Assembly: GCA_050015495.1 (NCBI GenBank) | Contig: JBEKBH010000001.1 | Coordinates: 28,284 to 92,283, forward strand | DNA: 64,000 nucleotides | Direction of reading: 5' to 3' | From: Verrucomicrobiia bacterium | Lineage (GTDB): Bacteria; Verrucomicrobiota; Verrucomicrobiia; Palsa-1439 | Shown here: positions 283-19,970 of the stretch, in pieces | Layout of the letters: the number at the start of each line of letters is the position of its first letter | How positions within the stretch are numbered: the stretch's first letter is position 1 | Translations under genes and position numbers: made by a program | The notes under the pieces: model-generated | Database searches by the model: none | What the model saw: only the letters and a program-made list of their open reading frames with translations | Told to the model about the DNA's origin: nothing

Positions 283-1005
283 ATGCGGAGGCGAAACTTT
301 GCGCAAATCCTGTGCGGACTGACCCTGGCACTCGCCGTCAATTCCGCGCGCGCCGATTCAACCAACGCGCCACCCATCGCCCGTGATCCCCGCTACCCGG
401 CCCGCTGGTGGACACCCGTGCCGACCAACAACGTGCCCGCATGGGAAATTCTGCCGCAGGAAGCCGGCCCCGGCGAAGTGATCCTCTCGAAACGCAACGA
501 GCTCGGCTTGCTCTCCAATTTCGCGCCCACACCTTTCACCTTCCACGGCAAACGTTACGCCAGCCTCGAAGGCTTCTGGCAGATGATGAAGTACCCCGAG
601 GGCGCTGACGATTCGCGAGCGACATTTCCGGGTTTGGAATGGAAATTCACGCGCGACCAGGTCGGACAACTCACCGCGTTCGACGCGAAGCACGCCGGCG
701 ATCTCGCCAACGAGAACATGAAAAAGATGGGCATCACGTGGGTCACGTTCGAGGGCAAACGCATCGAGTACAGGCCCGCCACACCCGGCGAGCACTATCA
801 ATTGATCGTGGAAGCGACGCGCGAGAAAATCCGCCAGAATCCCGAAGTCCAAAAAGTCTTGCTCGCCACCGGTAATCTCGTGTTAAAGCCCGACCATCAT
901 CAAGAACCCGACGCGCCCGCCGCGTGGCATTACTTCGACATTCTGATGATGATCCGCGGCGAATTGCAGAAGCCTAGCTACAGCCCTGCCTCTCAGTCTC
1001 GCTGA
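283..1005 (+). CDS. Secreted NADAR-domain (YbiA/DUF1768-like) protein with N-terminal signal peptide
   Basis: 240-aa ORF. The signal-like N-terminus is MRRRNFAQILCGLTLALAVNSARA. The motif GLLSNFAPTPFTFHGKRYASLEGFWQMMKY is typical of NADAR/YbiA-family proteins. Confidence 0.65.
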   Translation: MRRRNFAQILCGLTLALAVNSARADSTNAPPIARDPRYPARWWTPVPTNNVPAWEILPQEAGPGEVILSKRNELGLLSNFAPTPFTFHGKRYASLEGFWQMMKYPEGADDSRATFPGLEWKFTRDQVGQLTAFDAKHAGDLANENMKKMGITWVTFEGKRIEYRPATPGEHYQLIVEATREKIRQNPEVQKVLLATGNLVLKPDHHQEPDAPAAWHYFDILMMIRGELQKPSYSPASQSR

Positions 1006-1547
1006 TACGTTCCGACCAATTCCGTCTGCGCGAGGATATGTCCCTTCATCGCGGCGTCCAATTGGTGGCGCGTTACGCGCGGCGCGAGTTTCAATTCCGC
1101 ATCCAACGCATACAGCCGAAAATGATAGTGATGCACCCCATGCCCGCGCGGCGGACACGGCCCGCCGTAACCGACTCGTCCAAAATCGTTCATGCCCTGC
1201 TTCACACCGCTCAGCGCGGCAACCGTATCGGTTTTCGCAACGCTTTCTGGCAGTTCCGTCATGGTCGACGGAATCGCGTACGCCACCCAATGGATCCACG
1301 TCCCGCCAGGCGCATCGGGATCGTCCGCTATCAGCGCAAAACTTTTCGTCCCCGCCGGTGCGCCTTCCCATTTCAACGTCGGCGATGCATCCTCGCCTTC
1401 GCACGAAAACTTGGCCGGCATCGGCTGGTTATTCCGAAAGCTCGGGCTGGTCAGAGTCAATTGCGACATGGTGGTCTCCTTTCCGTCTCCGCGCGCCCAA
1501 AGGCACGCGCTCAGCACTATCGCGATAACACACGCACTCGTTCTCAT
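993..1547 (-). CDS. YbhB/YbcL-family phosphatidylethanolamine-binding (PEBP/Raf-kinase-inhibitor-like) protein, secreted
   Basis: The C-terminal 184 aa of the longer ORF hold the conserved block. It begins FSCEGEDASPTLKWEGAPAGTKSFALIADDPDAPGG and ends with the HHYHFRLYALD motif of bacterial PEBP proteins. The ATG at rc 1545-1547 is preceded by GGAGGAGG and followed by a signal-like stretch MRTSACVIAIVLSACLWA. The longer 421-aa track ORF is an upstream extension in GC-rich DNA. Confidence 0.8.
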   Translation of the reverse strand: MRTSACVIAIVLSACLWARGDGKETTMSQLTLTSPSFRNNQPMPAKFSCEGEDASPTLKWEGAPAGTKSFALIADDPDAPGGTWIHWVAYAIPSTMTELPESVAKTDTVAALSGVKQGMNDFGRVGYGGPCPPRGHGVHHYHFRLYALDAELKLAPRVTRHQLDAAMKGHILAQTELVGTYQRD

Positions 1548-1848
1548 CGCGCTCTCCTCCTCCCGCATTCTCCCCCAAACGTTTTCGTCGCGCAAGTTCT
1601 GCTTGCAAATCGCTCGCCGCCGCGTATATTCACGCCCAGCATCAGGAGTGTCCCGAAGAATTTCGGGACTGCCAACCGAGGCCGGAGCGCCTACGGTGGC
1701 TTCTCCGAGGCAGGCTGCCCCGGAGGATGTGCGGCCCCGAATGGTTTCCGGCCGAACAATCCGCTCCGCGCAATTGACCGCGCTCGCTGATGCGAACGCG
1801 GTTTTTGTTTTCCCTGATGCCGACAGGTTGTTAACGTAGGCGGATTCC

Positions 1849-4800
1849 ATGGGCAATCGCGACGAACGTACCAAGCTGCTGACCGCATTGCTGGACGAAC
1901 GCATCCTCGTGCTCGATGGCGCGATGGGCACGATGATCCAGCAGCGCAACCTTTCTGCCGACGACTTTGGCGGCCCCGCGCTCGAGGGCTGCAACGAAAA
2001 CCTCGTGCTCACGCGGCCCGACGTGATTCTCGACATCCATCGCCAGTACTTCGAGGCGGGCGCGGACATCGTCGAGACCGACACGTTCGGCGGCACGCCG
2101 CTCGTGCTCAACGAATACGGCCTCGCCGACAAATGTTTCGCACTCAATGCCACCGCAGCGAAACTCGCGCGCCAAGCCGCCGCCGAGTTCTCGACCCCGG
2201 CGAAGCCGCGCTTCGTCGCCGCGTCCATCGGCCCGACCACGAAAGCCATCACGGTCACGGGCGGTGTGACGTTCGCGCAATTGATCGACCATTTCTATCA
2301 ACAGGTCCGCGGACTCGCTGAAGGCGGCGCCGACATCCTCCTCGTCGAAACCTGCCAGGACACGCGCAACATCAAGGCCGCGCTCATCGGCATCCAGCAG
2401 GCCTTCGACGAACTCGGTTATAAACTTCCGATCATGGTCTCGGGCACGATCGAACCCATGGGCACGATGCTCGCCGGCCAGGCCGCCGACGCCCTCGTCG
2501 CGTCGCTCCAGCACGTCGACCTGCTCAGCATCGGCCTCAACTGTGCGACCGGTCCCGAATTCATGACCGATCACATCCGCACCATCCATCAGATGGCCAA
2601 CACGCGCGTCTCCTGCTATCCCAACGCAGGTTTGCCGAACGAGGAAGGTCTGTACCTCGAAACGCCGACCTCGCTGGCGTCGGCGTTGGAGCGGTTCGTG
2701 AAAAACGGCTGGCTCAACATCGTCGGCGGCTGTTGCGGCACCACGCCGCCCCACATTAAAGCCATCGCGCAGATGGTCGACGGCAAACCCCCGCGCACAT
2801 TCCGGGCCGCGCGCAAATCCTGGTACACCGGCATCGAACTCGTCGAGGCGACCGACGACAATCGCCCGCTCATCGTCGGCGAGCGCACCAACGAGGTCGG
2901 CTCGCGCGCGTTCAAGCGCCTTATCACCGACGAGAAATTCGAAGAAGCCACCGAGATCGCCCGCGCCCAGGTCAAGAGCGGCGCACACATCATTGACATC
3001 AACCTCGAAAACACCGACCGCGACGAGTTGGCCGACATCGACCGCTTTTACGAGAAGGTCATTCACAAGGTCAAAGTGCCGTTCATGATCGATACGACGA
3101 ACGCTCGCGCCATCGAGCGCGCGCTCACGTATTGCCTCGGCAAAAGCATCATCAACTCGATCAATTTCGAGGACGGCGAGGAAAAATTCCACAAAGTCCT
3201 GCCGCTCGTAAAGAAGTTCGGCGCGGCCATCGTCATCGGTTCCATCGACGAGGACAAACTCCAGGCCCAGGCCATCACGCGCGAACGCAAACTCGCCGTC
3301 GCCCGGCGCGCCCGGGATTATTGCGTCGAGCGCGGGATCGCGGAAGAGGATTTGATCTTTGACGCGCTCGTGTTCCCGTGCGCCACCGGCGACGAGAACT
3401 ACATCGGCAGCGCCGTCGAGACCATCGAGGGCGTGCGCCTGATCAAACAAGCCCTGCCCAAATGCAAGACCGTCCTCGGCGTGAGCAACGTCAGTTTCGG
3501 TCTGCCGCCCGCCGCGCGCGAGGTCATCAATTCCGTCTTCCTCTATCACGCGACGAAAGCAGGTCTCGACCTCGCCATCGTCAACGCCGAGAAACTGGAG
3601 CGTTACGCCACGATTCCCGACAAGGAAAAGAAGCTCGTCGAACATCTTCTCTGGAACCTGCCGTTCGCCGGCTTCGATGCGCCCGACGATTACCGCCAGC
3701 AGACCCGCGAACAGCGCATCGCGATCAACCAGCATCACATCGCCGCCATCAATGAGCATTTTCGCACCGCCGAGAGCCGCGTCAAAAAGAAAACGTCGGA
3801 CCTCCCGCTGAATGGTCGCCTCGCCAATTACATCCTCGAAGGCTCGAAGGAAGGTCTCATCGACGATCTCAACCTCAAGCTGAAGGAAGCCGCGCCGCTC
3901 GACATCATCAACGGCCCGCTCATGGACGGGATGAAAGAGGTCGGCCGCCTGTTCAACGCCAACGAGTTGATCGTCGCCGAGGTGCTGCAAAGCGCCGAGG
4001 CCATGAAAGCCGCCGTCGCGCACCTCGAACAATTCATGGAGAAGAAAGCCGATTCGACGAAGGGCAAGGTCCTCCTCGCCACCGTCAAGGGCGACGTGCA
4101 CGACATCGGCAAGAACCTCGTCGAGATCATCCTCTCGAACAACGGGTTCAATGTCATCAATCTCGGCATTAAAGTCCCGCCCGAGGACCTGATCAAGGCC
4201 TACCGCGAGCACAAGCCCGACGCGATCGGCTTGTCCGGCCTGCTCGTCAAAAGCGCCCAGCAAATGGTCATCACCGCGGGCGACCTGAAACAGGCGGGCA
4301 TCACCGTCCCGTTGCTCGTCGGCGGCGCCGCGCTCAGCGACAAGTTTACCCGCACCCGTATCTCGCCCAGCTACGAGCGCGTCGTCGTCTATTGCAAGGA
4401 CGCCATGACCGGCCTGTCGATCATGAACCGGCTCATGGACCCCGCCGAACGCGACAAACTCGCCGTGGAACATGCCCCATCTGGAGGGCCACGCTCCGTC
4501 GTGGCCGCTGTAGACGAATTCCCGGAAACCACGCAGCGCAGTTCGCGCGTGCGGATCCTGCCGCCGCGCCCCGCGCCGTACGCCGACCGCAAAGTGCGCG
4601 ACGTGCCGCAGCTCCGCGAGATTTGGGAATACATCAACCCCCAGATGCTCTACGTCCGCCATCTCGGGTTCAAATCCAATTTCGAGAAGGCGCTCGCCGC
4701 CCGCGACCCGAAAGCGCTGGAATTGGCGAGCCTCGTCGACGACGTGAAAGCCGAGGCCGCCAAATTCATGAAGGTCAAAGCCGTCTGGCAATTCTTCGAT

Positions 4801-5493
4801 GCCGAAGCGGCGGGTAATTCGATTAAACTCTTTACCGCCGGAAGTTGTCATTCTGAGCGAAGCGAAGAATCTCAGTCGTCCGGGAAAACGACAGAGACCC
4901 TTCGACAAGCTCAGGGTGACAGATCGGAGAAAGCGGTGTCACTCCATACCTTCCATTTCCACCGTCAGCGGAAGCCGGATGGGCTTTGCCTGTCCGATTA
5001 CGTCATGCCTCCGGCTCGTTCCCCTCGCCCCTCGGGGGGAGAGGGTCAGGGTGAGGGGGTGCTCGTCCGTGATTCGACTGCCCTCTTCGTCGTTGGCGCG
5101 GGCGCCGGCATCCGCCACCGCGCCGAGGAATACAAAGCCAAAGGCGAATACCTCAAATCGCACGCCCTGCAAGCGCTCGCCATCGAGACCGCCGAAGGCT
5201 GCGCCGAATGGCTCCATCGCCGAATCCGTGAGGACTGGGGGTTCCCCGATCCCGCCGACACGACCATGATCGACCGTTTCCAGGCCCGCTACCAGGGCAA
5301 ACGCTACAGCTTCGGCTACCCCGCCTGCCCCGCCCTCGAGGATCAGGCCGGGATTTGGAAATTATTGAGGCCGGAGGACATTGGTGTTCAACTCACGGAA
5401 GGGTTTATGATGGACCCAGAGGCGTCGGTGAGTGCGCTGGTGTTTCACCATCCCGATTGCACGTATTTTGGTGTGGGAGATGTGACGGAATGA
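1849..5493 (+). CDS. metH: Cobalamin-dependent methionine synthase MetH (Hcy-binding, pterin-binding, B12-binding and AdoMet activation domains)
   Basis: A 1214-aa ORF carries the expected MetH domain order. The N-terminus reads LDGAMGTMIQ, with GLNCATGP and GGCCGTTP in the Hcy-binding domain. The B12-binding region includes VKGDVHDIGKNLV, and the C-terminus has GYPACPALEDQ in the activation domain. Two short in-frame repeat-derived insertions sit in the activation domain (see the repeat features). Confidence 0.95.
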   Translation: MGNRDERTKLLTALLDERILVLDGAMGTMIQQRNLSADDFGGPALEGCNENLVLTRPDVILDIHRQYFEAGADIVETDTFGGTPLVLNEYGLADKCFALNATAAKLARQAAAEFSTPAKPRFVAASIGPTTKAITVTGGVTFAQLIDHFYQQVRGLAEGGADILLVETCQDTRNIKAALIGIQQAFDELGYKLPIMVSGTIEPMGTMLAGQAADALVASLQHVDLLSIGLNCATGPEFMTDHIRTIHQMANTRVSCYPNAGLPNEEGLYLETPTSLASALERFVKNGWLNIVGGCCGTTPPHIKAIAQMVDGKPPRTFRAARKSWYTGIELVEATDDNRPLIVGERTNEVGSRAFKRLITDEKFEEATEIARAQVKSGAHIIDINLENTDRDELADIDRFYEKVIHKVKVPFMIDTTNARAIERALTYCLGKSIINSINFEDGEEKFHKVLPLVKKFGAAIVIGSIDEDKLQAQAITRERKLAVARRARDYCVERGIAEEDLIFDALVFPCATGDENYIGSAVETIEGVRLIKQALPKCKTVLGVSNVSFGLPPAAREVINSVFLYHATKAGLDLAIVNAEKLERYATIPDKEKKLVEHLLWNLPFAGFDAPDDYRQQTREQRIAINQHHIAAINEHFRTAESRVKKKTSDLPLNGRLANYILEGSKEGLIDDLNLKLKEAAPLDIINGPLMDGMKEVGRLFNANELIVAEVLQSAEAMKAAVAHLEQFMEKKADSTKGKVLLATVKGDVHDIGKNLVEIILSNNGFNVINLGIKVPPEDLIKAYREHKPDAIGLSGLLVKSAQQMVITAGDLKQAGITVPLLVGGAALSDKFTRTRISPSYERVVVYCKDAMTGLSIMNRLMDPAERDKLAVEHAPSGGPRSVVAAVDEFPETTQRSSRVRILPPRPAPYADRKVRDVPQLREIWEYINPQMLYVRHLGFKSNFEKALAARDPKALELASLVDDVKAEAAKFMKVKAVWQFFDAEAAGNSIKLFTAGSCHSERSEESQSSGKTTETLRQAQGDRSEKAVSLHTFHFHRQRKPDGLCLSDYVMPPARSPRPSGGEGQGEGVLVRDSTALFVVGAGAGIRHRAEEYKAKGEYLKSHALQALAIETAEGCAEWLHRRIREDWGFPDPADTTMIDRFQARYQGKRYSFGYPACPALEDQAGIWKLLRPEDIGVQLTEGFMMDPEASVSALVFHHPDCTYFGVGDVTE
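4845..4940. repeat. Miniature inverted-repeat element (core GTCATTCTGAGCGAAGCGAAGAATC) inserted in-frame in metH
   Basis: Imperfect terminal inverted repeats are gtcattctgagcgaagc (left) and gacaagctcagggtgac (right). The three-frame translations give the recognisable CHSERSEESQ / VILSEAKNL peptides. In the MetH frame the element encodes SCHSERSEESQSSGKTTETLRQAQGDRSEKAV, an extra ~30 aa relative to the canonical MetH activation-domain loop. Confidence 0.55.
5022..5059. repeat. GC-rich miniature repeat (CTCGCCCCTCGGGGGGAGAGGGTCAGGGTGAGGGG family) inserted in-frame in metH
   Basis: It is the same family as the intergenic copy at 16743-16779 (ctcgccccttcagggagaggattaaggtgagggg). In metH it encodes RSPRPSGGEGQGEG, inserted between conserved blocks LCLSDYVMPPA and VLVRDSTALF. 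Confidence 0.6.
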
Positions 5494-6875
5494 ATGATTT
5501 GCCGACTGAACTTGTTCCGAGATTTCGGACTGATAGGCCGAATGAAACCGTCAAGGTCATAGCCGACCGGATGTCGTTGATCCGCGATGACGAGGTGCTC
5601 CTCTCGGGGGATGGGGAGATCGAAATGTGCTGGCTGCCTAGCCCGGGCGTACGTTTTTCCATAAAGAGGAAGTCGGAATATCCGCATGAATTCTTCAAAT
5701 ATTTGGGCGATCCCATTCCGCAGGGGTGCAAGATCGTTCTTGAGTCTTCTGGCAAGAGGTTACCCGTTTTTGTCACCAGCCATAGCTTTCCCGAGGGATT
5801 CAGGATGTATCACGGACGTGTCCAAGACGATGCGATTCCAAGCACCTTTGAGATTAAGGAAGCGACGTTCCATTTGGCGAACTTTAAAGCCGTTTTGTGT
5901 GAGGCAGTTGCATATCAGCAAGGGGGTGGCTCGCGGCTGGGTCGCTTCCGATTGGAGGCAGACGGATGGACGATTATTGTGGATGACATCCAAAACGGCG
6001 GACGGCACGGCGATTTGGAGAAGCAGCTGGATGCACAGGGCGGTTACGCGATTACGCACGTAGGGCGAATTGCACGAGCAGACGGCGGGGCTTTTACGGG
6101 TGACCAATGTACTGTTCTGCACGACAGGCTGTTTTGGTTCTTCTCGTTCTGTCGTTGCTGCAAAACAGGTCCCATCCTTGTGGGGCTAACCGGGAAGAAC
6201 GAGAACGAGAACCGGCTATCGCTGGTGGAGCGTTCGGTCAGCAGCTGGCAGTATCGCTCGAGCTGGGTGCCGGAAACCGAATTTCAAGTTCTCCCGTTGC
6301 TGTTTCCGGGTTTCCTCAAACGGATAAATGAACCCTCTTGGTCGGACACGATAGCATACGCGATTCATTGGTATTTGGAAGTGCACGATCAGTCGGGAGC
6401 TATCCAAGGGGCAATTGTGTTCGGTCAGACGGCCCTCGAAATGTTAGGCTGGAGTCTACTGGTTGATGACCTTCGAAATATAAGTCGTGAAGGCTACGAT
6501 AAGTTACCGGCAAGTGATAAGATTCGCCTGCTCTTGACCACAGTCGGTGTACCTCGGGAAATCCCGCTGTCTTTCACGAGGCTCTTGCAGGCGGCAAAAG
6601 CGGAGAACTGGCAAGACGGTCCGGACGCTGTTTCAGGGATTCGCAATCGAATAGTCCATTCAAGCGCGGATAAGCGTAAGGCTCTAAGCAGGGTAGAGTT
6701 CTCGGCCATCTGTGAGGCTTGGGAGCTCTGTCTTTGGTACAACGAGCTTACGCTTTTGCGTCTGTTCGATTATTCCGGCCAGTATTTCGACAGGACACGG
6801 AGCGCGAAATACCGATCGGAGGGACACGCGCCCGTGCCTTGGGCCGCAAACGGTCAGGTGGGCAAGCCCTTATGA
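5490..6875 (+). CDS. Hypothetical 461-aa protein with a C-terminal RN-x3-H (HEPN-like) motif, ApeA-like architecture; candidate abortive-infection/toxin gene
   Basis: The ATG at 5490 overlaps the metH TGA (ATGA overlap). The gene has visibly lower GC than its flanks. The C-terminal region has GIRNRIVHSSADKRKAL, which fits the HEPN R-x4-6-H signature. The N-terminal ~300 aa have no motif I recognise. The ApeA N-terminal-domain plus HEPN architecture is named from memory. Confidence 0.6.
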   Translation: MNDLPTELVPRFRTDRPNETVKVIADRMSLIRDDEVLLSGDGEIEMCWLPSPGVRFSIKRKSEYPHEFFKYLGDPIPQGCKIVLESSGKRLPVFVTSHSFPEGFRMYHGRVQDDAIPSTFEIKEATFHLANFKAVLCEAVAYQQGGGSRLGRFRLEADGWTIIVDDIQNGGRHGDLEKQLDAQGGYAITHVGRIARADGGAFTGDQCTVLHDRLFWFFSFCRCCKTGPILVGLTGKNENENRLSLVERSVSSWQYRSSWVPETEFQVLPLLFPGFLKRINEPSWSDTIAYAIHWYLEVHDQSGAIQGAIVFGQTALEMLGWSLLVDDLRNISREGYDKLPASDKIRLLLTTVGVPREIPLSFTRLLQAAKAENWQDGPDAVSGIRNRIVHSSADKRKALSRVEFSAICEAWELCLWYNELTLLRLFDYSGQYFDRTRSAKYRSEGHAPVPWAANGQVGKPL

Positions 6876-6978
6876 GGCATCGGGGTCACGTCTAATCATT
6901 GGTACATTTGCAACTCTGCCCCTTTGAACACCGCCACGCGCGGATCAACCACTTCCCGGTTGCTCGGAGCACATCGGC

Positions 6979-7242
6979 TCAACGGAAGTACAGCTTCTCG
7001 ACAATCACGACGCATAGCGCAATTCCCAATCCCCACAGGGCGCCACAGAACAACAACCATGCCGCCGTGCGTTCCCGCTGCGCCATCTCCTGCGCGTGAA
7101 CTTCCTTGAGATGCGCGATTTCCTGCGCATGACGCTCGTCGGTGGCGCGGGCTTCCTCACGCAGAAGTTCGACGTGTTCCCTGGAGATCGAGCCGCTGCC
7201 GTGCTCTCGAATCAGTTTATCCGCCAATTCCACGAGTGCCAT
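6979..7242 (-). CDS. Small hypothetical protein (87 aa) with C-terminal transmembrane anchor
   Basis: The ATG lies at rc 7240-7242. The protein begins [18 protein letters not shown], has a His/Glu-rich coiled stretch, and ends in the hydrophobic helix [22 protein letters not shown]. The longer 156-aa track ORF is an upstream extension. Confidence 0.35.
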
Positions 7243-7509
7243 AATGCGGTCCCTCCGATGAGTCGGGGTTGTCGGTTGCCCGGCATCGACCCGAATTCTG
7301 CCACGGGCGGGCCGCTTCCCGAAAGCCAAAACCGGCGGGTCCGCCACCGCGAGCAAGCGCTGTCCCAATCTCCGGGTGGAGGGACGCGCTCCGTCGCGTC
7401 CGCTGATATGAGAGATTACAGACGGCCACGACGGAGCGTGGCCCTCCAAGTCCGGTCATTGCACGGCTTGCAATCGGTTCTGCCTGTCACTACACTTTGC
7501 GTCAAACCC

Positions 7510-8025
7510 ATGAAGAAGACATCCATGACGTTACATCGATTTGCCGCCACACACGGACTCGTTCTCGCGCTTGTCGCTTTTGCGACGGGTTGTTCGCAGA
7601 GCGAGGCGCCCAAACAAGACCAACCGGCGGCGCCACCCGTCGTCGCCACAACATCTCAATCAGTGGCCGCCGTTGCGGCACCTCAACAGGGAGCTACTGT
7701 GACCGAATTGAAAATGGAAGACACCAAGGTCGGCACGGGCGCCGAAGCCGTGACGGGCAAGAGCGTGACGGTCCACTACACGGGCTGGCTCACCGACGGC
7801 ACCAAGTTCGACTCGTCCAAGGACCACGGTCAGCCGTTCACTTTCCAACTGGGTGCTGGTCAGGTCATCAAGGGCTGGGACCAGGGCGTTGTGGGCATGA
7901 AGGTGGGCGGCGTCCGCAAGCTCACCATCCCCGCCAGCCTGGCCTATGGCGACAGGGGCGCGGGCGGCGTGATTCCTCCCGGCGCCACGCTGGTGTTCGA
8001 AGTGGAACTCTTGGGCGTAAACTAA
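7510..8025 (+). CDS. FKBP-type peptidyl-prolyl cis-trans isomerase, lipoprotein
   Basis: The N-terminus [30 protein letters not shown] contains a lipobox. The FKBP domain is shown by [34 protein letters not shown] and [13 protein letters not shown]. Confidence 0.85.
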
Positions 8026-8115
8026 TTCCCAGCTACAATGGCGGTTGCCGTGTCGGCAAATCCCGACATCCTCAAGCACGTTATCTTGTAGACTCGTCAA
8101 TCAGGAACACACGAA

Positions 8116-8484
8116 ATGAAGCGAATGGTGATGGTCATGCTGATGGTCTTGGCGTTGGGATGTCACACCCCATCGAAGAAGGAACGCGAACAAGCGACTG
8201 CCGAGCAGCAACTGAAGAAAGAGGAGACAGCCCGTCGCCTGGAATATCTCGAAGCTCATCCCGACCTTTCGCCGGCGGTCAAGAAGGCCATTGCGCATGG
8301 AGATGTTCTGCCCGGAATGACCGAATCCGACGTGCGTGCCTCGATCGGAGAGCCCGACCAAATCGGCAGCACCGAGATGGAACATGGCACCCACGAGCAG
8401 TGGTATTATAAGACCGGCTCGCCCGGCAAGGAATACCTGTATTTCGATGGCGGCACGCTCACCAGTTGGCAATCGGACCATTAG
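8116..8484 (+). CDS. Small lipoprotein with SmpA/OmlA (BamE-like) fold features
   Basis: The N-terminus MKRMVMVMLMVLALGCHTPS contains a lipobox. The motif GMTESDVRASIGEPD resembles the BamE/SmpA_OmlA beta-alpha motif. Confidence 0.5.
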   Translation: MKRMVMVMLMVLALGCHTPSKKEREQATAEQQLKKEETARRLEYLEAHPDLSPAVKKAIAHGDVLPGMTESDVRASIGEPDQIGSTEMEHGTHEQWYYKTGSPGKEYLYFDGGTLTSWQSDH

Positions 8485-17047: not shown

Positions 17048-17908
17048 TCACGACAGAACGTCATCGGGCGAAACTTCAAGAATATCTCTGCAAAACTCTG
17101 ACATTATATTTCTACAGCGAACCATCGCTGGCTTCTCAACCGTTCCTTCGTTTGCCCACTTCGGAAATCCAAATCCAGCCTTCCACGAGGCGTTAAGAGG
17201 TAGAATCTGTCCAAATTCATCTCCCTCTTGCATGAAAACCCCTCGATAATGAATGAACTTGTAGAACATTCGCTTGTCAAATTGCCGCGTCAACGTCAGG
17301 ACGATAGTAAACGCGGGAATAATTTTTCCAGTGCCTAGGGTCTTTAGGTAAGGCGCTTCCATCGAGCCGCTTCCCGCATGAATCAAAAGTCCATTACAAT
17401 CTTCAAATGGCTTTATGAGCACACTCTCTTTTGGTAGGAATTGTGCTTTTAGCCTACGGTCCAATGTGGCACCCCCCGCTTCGTTTAGTGTGCTTTTTTC
17501 TCGGTCAAATACCGAGCATACAACCGCGAGAAGGCGCAACTCCTCAAACTTTTGTCGAGACGTGTTCGTGACCATGATTGTGCTTTTAAACGAACCTTCG
17601 CCGTGGTCGATAACTACCGAAATGGTGGGCTTGCTGGCATTCTGTATTTGTTCTTGGGTTTGTCTTATCTGCTCACGTTGCAACCACAGGGCGCAAACGA
17701 CACCAGCAAACGCTAGACCGGCAAATAGAGAATTCACTGCACCGAACATGTCTCCGAATTGTCCACGGTCAGAATAGGGTGAATTCGGATTTGGGGGAAC
17801 GAAATGCAAAATCAACAACCACGCTGACCCCCATAGTGCAATCACTACTGCGAAAACTAAAAACACCCACCAGTACCGCTTTGCAAATTCCAGTGCCTTC
17901 TTCATCAC
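17048..17908 (-). CDS. Island gene D: hypothetical 2-TM membrane protein with ~200-aa C-terminal soluble domain (candidate membrane-disrupting effector)
   Basis: The 286-aa protein has TM helices near residues 12-33 (WWVFLVFAVVIALWGSAWLLILHF) and 55-76 (FGAVNSLFAGLAFAGVVCALWL). The gene sits in a low-GC segment, 19 nt downstream of gene C. It has no motif I recognise. Confidence 0.6.
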   Translation of the reverse strand: MMKKALEFAKRYWWVFLVFAVVIALWGSAWLLILHFVPPNPNSPYSDRGQFGDMFGAVNSLFAGLAFAGVVCALWLQREQIRQTQEQIQNASKPTISVVIDHGEGSFKSTIMVTNTSRQKFEELRLLAVVCSVFDREKSTLNEAGGATLDRRLKAQFLPKESVLIKPFEDCNGLLIHAGSGSMEAPYLKTLGTGKIIPAFTIVLTLTRQFDKRMFYKFIHYRGVFMQEGDEFGQILPLNASWKAGFGFPKWANEGTVEKPAMVRCRNIMSEFCRDILEVSPDDVLS

Positions 17909-17927
17909 TTGCTCCTAACGGCTCACT

Positions 17928-18389
17928 TCAATGTGCAACAGCCTGAGCCAACTTCGTTACAAACTGTTTGAGGCAATCCTGTGGTACGAGAACGCTGAAC
18001 CCATCGTCGCCATAGAATTCGATTTTGGTAATCTCCGAGCCGTCACCATGTGGTCGGATGTCCAAGTGGGAAATGCTGTTCCTCATGCGATAGATGAGTT
18101 CGCATAGTGTTCCGTAATGTTCAGGTTTGACCTTCTCCGGGCGCTTTCCCCAATTCTTCACGAATTCAAGGTGAAATCCCCAATCTCCGAGTTGTTCGAT
18201 TGGGATAGGTGGTAGACGGTTAAATCGCCGCTCATTCGGCAGCACCAACAAACCGAGCAGGCAGTTAATCAGGAGCGTCACTTCAACTTGCTCTCGCTTT
18301 TCCACCGCGCTTTGTACGTGCGTCTCGTACTGCTGAATAATAGCGAGCGTTCTGGTGATGAAGTCTCTCTCAAACACTTCGTATTCCAT
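17928..18389 (-). CDS. Island gene C: small (153 aa) HEPN-motif protein
   Basis: The sequence LIYRMRNSISHLDIRP contains R-N-x3-H, which fits the HEPN Rx4-6H catalytic motif. The gene lies in the low-GC segment, and its size is typical of a minimal HEPN domain. Confidence 0.5.
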   Translation of the reverse strand: MEYEVFERDFITRTLAIIQQYETHVQSAVEKREQVEVTLLINCLLGLLVLPNERRFNRLPPIPIEQLGDWGFHLEFVKNWGKRPEKVKPEHYGTLCELIYRMRNSISHLDIRPHGDGSEITKIEFYGDDGFSVLVPQDCLKQFVTKLAQAVAH

Positions 18390-18410
18390 AAATGCAGTCT
18401 CGCAGCTTCA

Positions 18411-19151
18411 TCAGGCAACAGGTGTAGACTCCCTCCATCTCTCTTCAAACAATTTCAACTGAGCGGCAGGATTCGCAATCCGGTTCAACTGCGTGTCCTT
18501 TGTGCCAAGGTCTTTCATCGAGTGACCAACGTGGAACCCATGAGACTTGTCCCACAACACAAAACGGTCATGAATTTGTTGAAAGCCATGCAGGCGCATC
18601 TCGACTTTGCCGTATTCGGCTTTGAATGCACCGTATGCGATGATTGCTGCACTTTTTGTTTGGTCGGAAGTGATAATCCGTACAGATGCCCCGGTTTCCG
18701 CGTCCTGAATCAAATCGAACACCTTTGCGCCGATGTAAGGGTCAAGGATGCAGAGTTCGGCCTTTGCGAGACTGAAAATTTCTCGTAGAATGCGATTGGC
18801 CTTGAAGTGTTCTCCTGCCCTTACGAGAATTTCATCTTTTTGAATATTGGACACACGGATGATGGGCTGACTTTCCCATTCCTGTTGAGCGTGGCTCATT
18901 GATGCGTAAAGCTCCGCTCCATAATCCGTCAATCTGACCATATGCCCGTCTGGTGAAAGACTCAGAACATTTTTATCAATAAGAGATTGGAGTATCTGGT
19001 CTCCGGTTTCGCAATGCAATCTGGCGAGTGCTATTTGAACTTGTACAAGCTCGTGCGGCATCGTCCACGACATGAACTTCATAAAGTAGACACCGACGAC
19101 CCAAAATTCTTTTTTGGAGAGTTCTGCCATAGGCTTTAGACAGTCTCCCAT
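18411..19151 (-). CDS. Island gene B: hypothetical 246-aa protein, N-terminal winged-helix-like region plus C-terminal acidic/His-rich domain of unassigned fold
   Basis: The N-terminal stretch ILQSLIDKNVLSLSPDGHMVRLTDYGAELY resembles a wHTH recognition helix and wing. The C-terminal half has the conserved-looking blocks CILDPYIGAKVFDLIQD, VRIITSD, IHDRFVLWD and GFHVGHSMKDLG. These give only weak PLD- or PIN-like resemblance. Its start overlaps gene A by 16 nt. Confidence 0.5.
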   Translation of the reverse strand: MGDCLKPMAELSKKEFWVVGVYFMKFMSWTMPHELVQVQIALARLHCETGDQILQSLIDKNVLSLSPDGHMVRLTDYGAELYASMSHAQQEWESQPIIRVSNIQKDEILVRAGEHFKANRILREIFSLAKAELCILDPYIGAKVFDLIQDAETGASVRIITSDQTKSAAIIAYGAFKAEYGKVEMRLHGFQQIHDRFVLWDKSHGFHVGHSMKDLGTKDTQLNRIANPAAQLKLFEERWRESTPVA

Positions 19152-19798
19152 CCTGCATCAACGGAGCGCAACTGTCCCCAATGGAACTTGCGCGGAACTG
19201 TGTCGAGAATTGTTGCGATGTAAACAAAAAGATTCTGTTTCGCGATGTCGTCACACCCAACCACATCACAGGCGAAACGTAACGCGGCCCTAAGATTTGT
19301 TTCAGGAGCCTGCAAGTGTCGTTGATTTCCCTTCTTCGCACCCGCCAATATCGCGCAAATGAGCTTAGGTTCTTCGGGTGCTGTCTTGTCGAGAAGTTTA
19401 AGACAAACCTGAGCAAATTCCATTTTGTTTGGCATCCATGGCCCCTTCCATTCGACCCGTATGCGTGGGCAGGTGTGGATAACAAAATCGTGGTTCCCTC
19501 TCTGGCCCCGTAGCACTTCTTGCCTCTCCTTCTGAACATTCTCAAGCCTCAGAGCTTTCCAACTGAATTTGCCAGCAGTTTTTCCTTCCGGTGTCAACAG
19601 GTGCTCCGTCCACATGTCAACCCCATCTTCTTTGAAATGCTTCCAAAGCAGGCACGAAAATTTGTGGTGAAAAAATCGTTCGTTCGCTAAATCCTTAAAC
19701 GAGTCATACCCAACAGTATTCCGATGCGCAGCCGTCACTGCCAGAATCTGCTCAAGGATTGCTTCCCAATCCGATCGATTCAGTTCGTATTGCACCAA
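19136..19798 (-). CDS. Island gene A: hypothetical ~220-aa protein with possible PD-(D/E)xK nuclease motif
   Basis: The likely start is TTG/GTG at rc 19795-19798, 8-9 nt after AGGAG, and the protein begins VQYELNRSDWEAIL. The longer track ORF extends upstream into the tandem-repeat region. The stretch WTEHLL...GNHDFVIHTCPRIRVEWKG gives E...D...ExK spacing compatible with a restriction-endonuclease-like fold. This is speculative. Confidence 0.45.
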   Translation of the reverse strand: MVQYELNRSDWEAILEQILAVTAAHRNTVGYDSFKDLANERFFHHKFSCLLWKHFKEDGVDMWTEHLLTPEGKTAGKFSWKALRLENVQKERQEVLRGQRGNHDFVIHTCPRIRVEWKGPWMPNKMEFAQVCLKLLDKTAPEEPKLICAILAGAKKGNQRHLQAPETNLRAALRFACDVVGCDDIAKQNLFVYIATILDTVPRKFHWGQLRSVDAGWETV

Positions 19799-19891
19799 GC
19801 AGCTTCTCCTTCTGCGCGTACGGATAGGGGTCAGACCTATGATCTTGACACCATCCCCTCCCGCCTCCGCCCGAAGTGCCGTCACCCCCCA

Positions 19892-19970
19892 CTTCGAATT
19901 TCGACATTCGGACTTCGAGTTCTGCCCGCACCCGTGCGCTTCGAATTTCGACATTCCGATTTCGAGTTTC
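19892..19970. repeat. Tandem direct repeat (2 x ~31-nt unit, period ~47 nt) at the right boundary of the low-GC island
   Basis: The first unit is cttcgaatttcgacattcggacttcgagttc at 19892-19922. The second is cttcgaatttcgacattccgatttcgagtttc at 19939-19970. Confidence 0.6.

Follow-up and report, generated by a model that had tools for sequence, protein, structure and literature searches.

A YopA-family gene with a predicted HEPN nuclease domain in a cassette slot at the metH 3' end of a Verrucomicrobiia genome

The YopA-family gene adjoining metH

The stretch of 64,000 nucleotides (nt) analysed here, referred to as the window, comes from a Verrucomicrobiia bacterium (GenBank assembly GCA_050015495.1, contig JBEKBH010000001.1, positions 28,284 to 92,283). 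It includes metH, the gene for cobalamin-dependent methionine synthase, and directly downstream an open reading frame (ORF) for a protein of 461 amino acids (aa). On sequence similarity, the product of this ORF belongs to the Pfam YopA_M/YopA_C family, and it is with high confidence a YopA-family HEPN protein that was acquired at a hot spot. It represents a new variant of the single-protein HEPN effector theme, drawn from a family that has been named in Pfam and is uncharacterised by experiment. Coordinates of the features are given in Table 1.

The ATG of the ORF (5490-5492) overlaps the TGA stop codon of metH (5491-5493) to give ATGA. A homologue at locus L001, the product of which is 74% identical to the window protein, begins with the same MNDLP sequence, has an in-frame TAA one codon upstream of its ATG, and overlaps metH by 8 nt (ATGAATGA). 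Hence, the ATG at 5490 is the start codon of the window ORF, and a TTG further upstream at 5355 was ruled out by the in-frame stop in L001. The GC content of the ORF is 0.535 overall and 0.60 at third codon positions (GC3), as compared with 0.616 and 0.80, respectively, for metH; the median GC3 of the 45 long ORFs of the window is 0.71. GC content remains at 0.52-0.55 within the ORF and is about 0.60-0.65 in the flanks. An earlier note on this DNA, which had described a 461-aa ORF overlapping the metH stop codon and lower in GC than metH, is therefore borne out on both points.

A database search with the window protein found 59 homologues, one of which (P0001, from a Verrucomicrobiia metagenome-assembled genome, MAG) is identical to it. 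Both YopA_M (PF26308) and YopA_C (PF27216) are annotated on all 58 strong homologues, P0001 included, the weakest of the 59 being the exception; these matches are precomputed database annotations, and both models are absent from the local Pfam copy used for the scans reported here. In that copy and in the local NCBIfam and PADLOC libraries, neither the whole window protein nor its N-terminal region has any match, the latter in keeping with the earlier note, which recognised no motif there. PDB sequences gave no match by single-sequence or profile search. Among phage genomes searched by tblastn, the yopA coding sequence of SPbeta (phage SPBc2) aligns with query residues 121-437 at 27% identity (E 1e-25). 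When 1.84 billion cluster representatives were searched with a profile built from the 58 sequences, 4,537 proteins scored E<=1e-3, of which 2,601 reached E<=1e-30; of the best 150 matches listed, nearly all are 430-470 aa long and match from end to end. The YopA family is thus large and uniform in architecture. Its hosts are scattered and include Cyanobacteria, Bacteroidota and Proteobacteria, a Bacillus prophage, and plasmids.

The structure of the window protein predicted by AlphaFold2 from the homologue alignment (predicted local distance difference test score, pLDDT, 93.1; predicted template modelling score, pTM, 0.93) has three parts (Table 1). In the most conserved motif of the family, located in the middle part, G185 is invariant, and T189 and H190 are at least 90% conserved. 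In the C-terminal part, R385, N386, and H390 are each conserved in at least 90% of the 58 homologues, and E317 is invariant. Given this conservation, the RNxxxH sequence is more than a chance motif. HEPN domains are defined by an Rx4-6H motif at a helix end, a polar residue (N, D or H) following the R, and a conserved acidic residue upstream (PMC3710099). In the window protein, the R is followed by N; R385 and N386 close the predicted helix 377-389, and H390 opens the loop that follows. The upstream acidic residue is E317 in helix 304-327, in the form ExxxW and not the usual Ex3[KR].

HEPN_Apea (PF18739) is the sole Pfam family of the local copy that recurs in the homologues, with matches to 7/58 members at E<=1 (best E 2e-5). 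Since the conserved motif lies at a helix end and HEPN_Apea is the only recurrent family, the C-terminal region is taken, from the alignment and the predicted model, to be an Apea-like HEPN domain with an intact RNxxxH motif. In a fold search with the predicted structure, HepT and other HEPN structures ranked at the top, and the N-terminal barrels were found to resemble PilZ-type ligand-binding folds. Foldseek searches of PDB and BFVD listed HtrA proteases and viral polymerases in their top rows at TM scores under 0.15, and these rows were discarded as noise. The R-x4-H motif named in the earlier note is therefore present and conserved; it was said to end the protein, and in this detail the description does not hold, as the peptide concerned, GIRNRIVHSSAD, comprises residues 383-394 (window 6636-6671), ~70 residues short of the C-terminus.

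Table 1. Features of the metH locus; positions are those of the window unless another locus is named.
Feature	Coordinates	Strand	Remarks
Sigma-70-like promoter match	1603..1630	+	TTGCAA-16-TATATT; 1 found vs 0.1 expected in shuffles; consensus match only
SAM-I/IV riboswitch-like aptamer	1634..1770	+	Rfam RF01725, full-length, 37.2 bits, E 1.4e-4 on a 401-nt stretch
Hairpin and U-tract	1776..1811	+	candidate intrinsic terminator (expression platform); -21.1 kcal/mol, z -3.68
metH, cobalamin-dependent methionine synthase	1849..5493	+	complete, 1214 aa; five Pfam domains: S-methyl_trans, Pterin_bind, B12-binding_2, B12-binding, Met_synt_B12
Shine-Dalgarno-like GGGAG	5475..5479	+	10 nt 5' of the ATG, inside conserved metH GVGD codons; function inferred
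Variable cassette segment without homology to L010	5483..6879	+	last 3 metH codons and stop, whole ORF, about 4 nt
YopA-family gene	5490..6875	+	461 aa plus stop; predicted single-protein HEPN RNase
N-terminal beta-rich region	5490..5987	+	aa 1-166, predicted structure; putative sensor/regulatory module
Middle alpha/beta region	6006..6221	+	aa 173-244; GGYAITHVG is the most conserved motif of the family
C-terminal all-helical HEPN-fold domain	6288..6764	+	aa 267-425, predicted structure
Rx4H predicted catalytic motif RNRIVH	6642..6659	+	aa 385-390 (R385, N386, H390); read from sequence
Duplicated metH 3' end, L011	5379-5588
Duplicated metH 3' end, L012	5650-5946
Duplicated metH 3' end, L014	4338-4412
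Duplicated metH 3' end, L015	5542-5601
Duplicated metH 3' end, L018	6082-6300
Duplicated metH 3' end, L025	5431-5526

The cassette slot and expression from metH

The closest relative of the window, locus L010, is ~91% identical to it in nucleotide sequence over 608-5482 and 6879-8029, and lacks the YopA-family gene. Between these breakpoints, L010 carries a different segment of 577 bp with a low-GC ORF for 142 aa. Across the relatives, homology in metH is kept up to and including TATTTTGGnGTnGGnGA (YFGVGD/E) and is lost within the final 3-5 codons; on the right side, junction alignments show that it restarts 5-10 nt past the stop codon of the ORF. When the GTDB representative genomes, one for each species, were scanned with the C-terminal domain of metH, 80 metH loci were returned, and a YopA-like protein is encoded at none of them. 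The gene is thus horizontally acquired, as an ORF-sized cassette. Horizontal acquisition had been proposed in the earlier note, and the absence of the gene from L010 and from 80/80 metH loci, together with its low GC3, upholds the proposal. The same note regarded the joining of such a gene to an essential one as unusual. An ordinary explanation is available, namely that the site is a hot spot and that the start codon overlaps the metH stop because the cassette joins metH within its final codons.

In this Verrucomicrobial lineage, cassettes of differing content occupy the metH 3' end, which is thus a hot spot. The slot holds an antitoxin-like ORF and a ParE toxin gene in L011, a gene for BrnT with a BrnA-like ORF in L014, a type I restriction R subunit gene (HsdR) in L020, and a gene for an Mrr-like / PDC-S02 nuclease in L016. 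Several further low-GC ORFs in the slots of relatives are of no recognised family. Those without a Pfam or PADLOC match are located at 4954-5382 in L010 (142 aa), 5610-6434 in L011 (274 aa), 5587-6753 in L025 (388 aa), and 6334-7926 on the minus strand in L018 (530 aa), and these four low-GC ORFs are candidate defence or toxin genes.

At six Verrucomicrobial loci (L011, L012, L014, L015, L018, and L025), a second, partial metH 3' end is found 0.5-1.3 kb downstream of the first (Table 1). The duplicated ends flank toxin-antitoxin (TA) or unrecognised cassettes, and the 274-aa ORF of L011 begins 7 nt past the stop codon of the duplicated end. No duplicated end was found in the non-Verrucomicrobial loci, and the window has a single copy. 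The duplications suggest the footprint of repeated insertions that brought in or duplicated the metH end. Insertion could be by site-specific integration or by Campbell-type homologous integration of circles carrying the metH end; no integrase or recombinase gene is present in or adjoining the slot of the window. The sequence TCATTGGTACATTTGC at the right boundary was considered as a general att-like site and rejected, as it is confined to the window, L001, and L010. The window slot resembles known hot spots between core genes in that its contents vary between conserved flanks (metH on one side, a small ORF and FKBP on the other) and in that TA and restriction genes are among the cargo in relatives; the duplicated metH ends of six relatives form direct repeats, a further point of likeness. 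As compared with 3'-end integration with target duplication, the window differs in having one inserted ORF and no duplicated metH end.

L001 has the same arrangement as the window, with metH, the YopA-like gene, a small minus-strand ORF, and FKBP, at 78-83% nucleotide identity. The linkage of a YopA-family gene to metH is limited to these two genomes. A metagenome scan with the window protein detected only two distant relatives and no further close or metH-linked copies. The ratio of nonsynonymous to synonymous substitution rates (dN/dS) between the window and L001 genes is 0.145, and the YopA-family gene is, on this sequence comparison, under purifying selection. The last 63 metH codons (window 5302-5490 compared with L001 1-192) encode identical protein sequences (100%), with synonymous sites near saturation (proportion of synonymous differences, pS, 0.72), and pS is 0.2-0.3 in the genes of the right flank. 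The region of the left junction may therefore differ in history from the right flank, for example by co-transfer with the cassette. The flanks of L010 are closer to the window than are those of L001, yet the gene is missing from L010. This is most simply read as an older acquisition with later replacement of the cassette in the L010 lineage, and alleles may also have been exchanged at the hot spot.

The overlap of the gene with metH is retained in the two diverged genomes. A scan of 4800-8200 for sigma-70-type consensus sites and for terminators revealed no promoter-like site on the plus strand, and the sole plus-strand terminator-like match is a weak 5-pair stem inside the ORF (5635-5649). 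As there is no promoter- or terminator-like site between the two genes, the YopA-family gene is probably transcribed with metH. A terminator after the ORF was considered and rejected, the fold being no stabler than that of shuffled sequence (z +1.17).

Upstream of metH lies a leader with a match to an S-adenosylmethionine (SAM) riboswitch of the SAM-I/IV type, preceded by a promoter match and followed by a terminator-like hairpin (Table 1). Aptamer matches are also found 5' of metH in L010 (1027-1148), L012 (764-900), and L013 (746-882), with scores of 35-38.6 bits. The hairpin folds better than each of 200 shuffles (0/200 fold as well), and its sequence is identical in L010 and L011. In these two loci the leader is conserved, and the stem of the first aptamer hairpin shows compensatory changes as compared with the window. 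Hence metH is presumably under the control of a SAM OFF-switch, and the cassette gene is plausibly co-transcribed with metH and translationally coupled to it.

Predicted function and competing explanations

HEPN nucleases cleave RNA independently of metal ions, using a composite Rx4-6H site that is formed in a dimer (PMC3710099). The window protein would be a HEPN endoribonuclease of this metal-independent kind and, as a single protein, would serve as an effector in anti-phage defence or abortive infection. By analogy with the systems compared below, the N-terminal barrels and the conserved middle domain would hold the nuclease inactive until a cue of infection is sensed, whereupon two HEPN domains might form a composite active site, cut cellular RNA, and arrest the cell. 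The likeliest target, by analogy with ApeA and DARNA, would be tRNA anticodon loops. The gene would have arrived as an ORF-sized cassette in a hot spot that holds TA and restriction genes in relatives, to be transcribed with metH from the SAM-I/IV OFF-riboswitch-like leader and translated by coupling. This reading as a whole, i.e. a YopA-family HEPN RNase defence effector acquired at the hot spot and co-transcribed with metH, is favoured with moderate confidence. Its inferred parts are the RNase activity, the defence role, the target, the sensor role of the N-terminal region, and the co-transcription. What the analysis shows directly is the structure of the gene, its family, the HEPN fold with its conserved motif, purifying selection, the pattern of presence and absence, and the varied contents of the slot.

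The genomic contexts of other family members were sampled (12 in all, 11 of them outside the metH lineage). At L002, a type IIG restriction-modification (R-M) gene adjoins the family gene, with ParE/Phd and ImmA/IrrE-type pairs, in an island of R-M and TA genes. A Nostoc member adjoins a PIN toxin-antitoxin pair, another member adjoins an M78/HTH and DUF3368 pair, and a third is near IS110 and a ThsB-like TIR gene (ThsB_TIR). Integrases adjoin the members in Nonlabens and on a Methylophaga plasmid, and one member, in a prophage-like region, has a gene for a large serine recombinase as its neighbour. The Escherichia coli homologue WP_032177718.1 (437 aa, annotated "hypothetical protein") is encoded at L090 6524-7837 on IncY plasmid NZ_CP061756.1, directly upstream of type I R-M genes (M and S subunits) and two DUF262 genes. 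In SPbeta, yopA is near the RES-domain gene yopC and the SieB-like yopH. The GC content of the family gene is below that of the flanks at 7/11 of the other loci. No partner gene is conserved across the 12 contexts, which indicates that the YopA family is a single-gene system. The SPbeta protein is like the window protein in sequence, in length (about 440-460 aa), and in being encoded by a stand-alone gene in accessory or mobile DNA; unlike this prophage gene, the window copy adjoins the end of metH on the chromosome of a Verrucomicrobial MAG.

Several results weigh against this interpretation. The last 161 residues of the window protein match HEPN_Apea at 14.1 bits (E 0.066), below the gathering score of 24.4 bits, and the full-length protein has no match to this model; the HEPN_Apea similarity looked for on the basis of the earlier note is thus evident in relatives and sub-threshold in the window protein itself. 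Foldseek searches against PDB and against BFVD gave nothing significant. The defence role rests on context and analogy, since PADLOC models match none of 8 diverse members of the family (at E<=10, nothing matched the window protein or either half of it; at E<=1, nothing matched 7 diverse relatives, which include the E. coli and SPbeta proteins); PADLOC-DB v2.0, which includes ApeA models and from which the YopA family is absent, was the one defence database used. Two of the 11 contexts outside the metH lineage, L008 and L092, have housekeeping neighbours only, and in both the family gene is well below the local GC content (0.56 vs 0.71 and 0.52 vs 0.60). In the searchable literature, no experiment on, and no function assigned to, any YopA-family protein was found, nor any paper that connects YopA to HEPN or to defence. 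As regards expression, the promoter scan covered sigma-70-type consensus sites only, so that the metH 3' end may contain a promoter of its own, and all riboswitch matches are just under the Rfam gathering score of 41.1 bits. Finally, the synonymous substitution rate (dS) between the window and L001 is 1.08 for the gene, as compared with 0.37 for FKBP and 0.24 for the small ORF in the right flank (0.24-0.37); a single ancestral insertion is therefore too simple a history for the site.

Of the competing explanations, the one that survives best, though its probability is low, is that of a selfish toxin or addiction module without a role in phage defence, in which the HEPN toxin would be kept inactive by the N-terminal domain of the same protein or by an antitoxin that escaped recognition, and which would persist since its loss is harmful. 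The same slot holds the TA toxins ParE and BrnT in relatives, family members are often found beside TA pairs, and HepT, the best structural match, is itself a TA toxin. However, with no neighbour conserved over the 12 contexts there is no candidate antitoxin gene. The minus-strand ORF downstream (6979-7449, 156 aa) was rejected as an antitoxin gene, as it is kept in L010, which has no HEPN gene. HepT is a minimal HEPN protein of ~130-150 aa that is neutralised through AMPylation by an adjacent MNT antitoxin, whereas the window protein has 461 aa, with about 265 extra N-terminal residues, and no MNT neighbour. The genes around the ORF are metH, the 156-aa ORF, which has no Pfam match, and FKBP, and no MNT-type nucleotidyltransferase gene adjoins it. 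TA and defence roles, moreover, overlap in practice.

Less probable still is that the window protein is a genuine member of the ApeA family, too divergent to be recognised by the models. It is like ApeA in layout and in HEPN subtype: both are encoded by a single gene, both have a C-terminal HEPN domain with an RNxxxH motif that gives weak HEPN_Apea matches and a long non-catalytic N-terminal part, and HepT is the closest solved HEPN structure for both. A description by Anantharaman et al. also resembles the window protein, and HEPN_Apea is, as stated, the sole recurrent Pfam family. Nevertheless, profile searches and architecture both speak against membership. ApeA_NTD1 matches 0/58 members at E<=1, and the ApeA models of PADLOC match 0/8. 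The solved ApeA proteins have about 580 aa, fold mainly into alpha-helices, and combine a catenin-like N-domain with a PafA-like Mid domain (bioRxiv 10.64898/2026.01.26.701840), whereas the window protein is about 120 aa shorter and has a beta-rich N-terminus; Pfam, too, files YopA_M and YopA_C separately. The designation of the gene as ApeA-like in the earlier note, if meant as family membership, cannot be retained.

ApeA nevertheless provides an analogy for the favoured reading of a YopA-family defence effector. It forms a doughnut-shaped oligomer and cleaves tRNA anticodons, and its N-terminal part forms, jointly with the HEPN domain, a pocket that holds a small ligand (bioRxiv 10.64898/2026.01.26.701840). 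ApeA and DARNA are both single-protein HEPN tRNA anticodon nucleases that are activated by nucleic-acid-derived ligands. DARNA (PD-T7-3), an abortive-infection system that, once activated, cuts tRNA in the anticodon loop, serves as a working analogy in that one polypeptide pairs a HEPN domain with a large sensor part, putative in the window protein. In DARNA, however, the HEPN domain comes first and is followed by the sensor, an all-helical C-terminal domain, whereas the HEPN domain of the window protein is C-terminal. Given the opposite domain order and the absence of a PADLOC match, assignment of the window protein to the DARNA/PD-T7-3 family was rejected.

It is very unlikely that the HEPN protein lacks catalytic activity and serves, for example, in nucleotide binding or regulation linked to methionine or SAM metabolism. 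The overlap with metH, the position downstream of the riboswitch-like leader, and the resemblance of the N-terminal barrels to PilZ-type folds would fit such a role, and some HEPN domains are indeed non-catalytic (PMC3710099). Those that have lost catalysis typically lose the motif (PMC3710099), whereas here each of the R-N-x3-H residues is kept in at least 90% of the homologues, and E317 is invariant. The canonical PilZ motifs RxxxR and DxSxxG are not conserved in the family alignment. The linkage to metH is, moreover, absent in L010, and the members beyond the two metH-linked ones occur in unrelated contexts. A vertically inherited core gene, e.g. one for an RNA-processing enzyme, might be suggested by the dN/dS of 0.145 and by the occurrence of the gene at the same site in two genomes with flanks ~78-83% identical, but this explanation is the least probable of all and is largely refuted by the different cassette at the exact place in L010 and the 0/80 metH loci that carry the gene, as well as by its atypical composition and the scatter of the family over phyla, prophage, and plasmids.

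If the prediction of a YopA-family defence effector is correct, a family of several thousand sequence clusters gains a function, as a single-protein HEPN RNase in immunity with a sensor unlike those of ApeA and DARNA. Members of the family, annotated only as "hypothetical protein", are encoded in SPbeta, a model prophage, and on IncY plasmids of E. coli beside restriction systems. As homologues exist in Bacillus subtilis and E. coli, the prediction is directly testable. The locus itself shows a compact cassette hot spot with sharp boundaries at the 3' end of an essential gene that is probably controlled by a riboswitch, and may be useful as a case of how promoter-less defence genes are passed on and expressed.

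A more far-reaching proposal, which is considered improbable, is that the metH 3' end of this Verrucomicrobial lineage serves as a promoter-less expression slot for defence and toxin cassettes, which would insert into the final metH codons and be transcribed under the SAM-riboswitch leader, so that a fall in SAM would raise the level of the HEPN effector, and that YopA proteins are a new and widespread single-protein HEPN defence with a beta-barrel sensor. Methionine starvation could cause the fall in SAM, as could an anti-restriction enzyme of a phage that degrades SAM, and a metabolic alarm signal would then be tied to immunity.

Other features of the window

In-frame insertions resembling translated repeat elements, CHSERSEESQSSGKTTETLRQAQGDRSEK followed by SPRPSGGEGQGEGV, are present in metH at ~4850-5090, in the Met_synt_B12 domain. 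They vary among close relatives: L010 has the first only, L011 the second only, and L012 a longer form of the first.

At the left end of the window, the plus-strand ORF 283-1005 encodes a protein of 240 aa with a signal-peptide-like N-terminus and a sub-threshold match to Pfam Phage_30_3 (GP30.3; 34.8 bits vs a cutoff of 36).

A second low-GC island is located on the minus strand at 17048-19954 and comprises four ORFs with GC contents of 0.47-0.51 against a background of ~0.60. One of these, 17928..18389, encodes a pEK499_p136-type HEPN protein (Pfam E 3e-26), and its neighbours have either no Pfam match or a weak one (DUF6082). The island is probably another acquired HEPN-containing module in the window.

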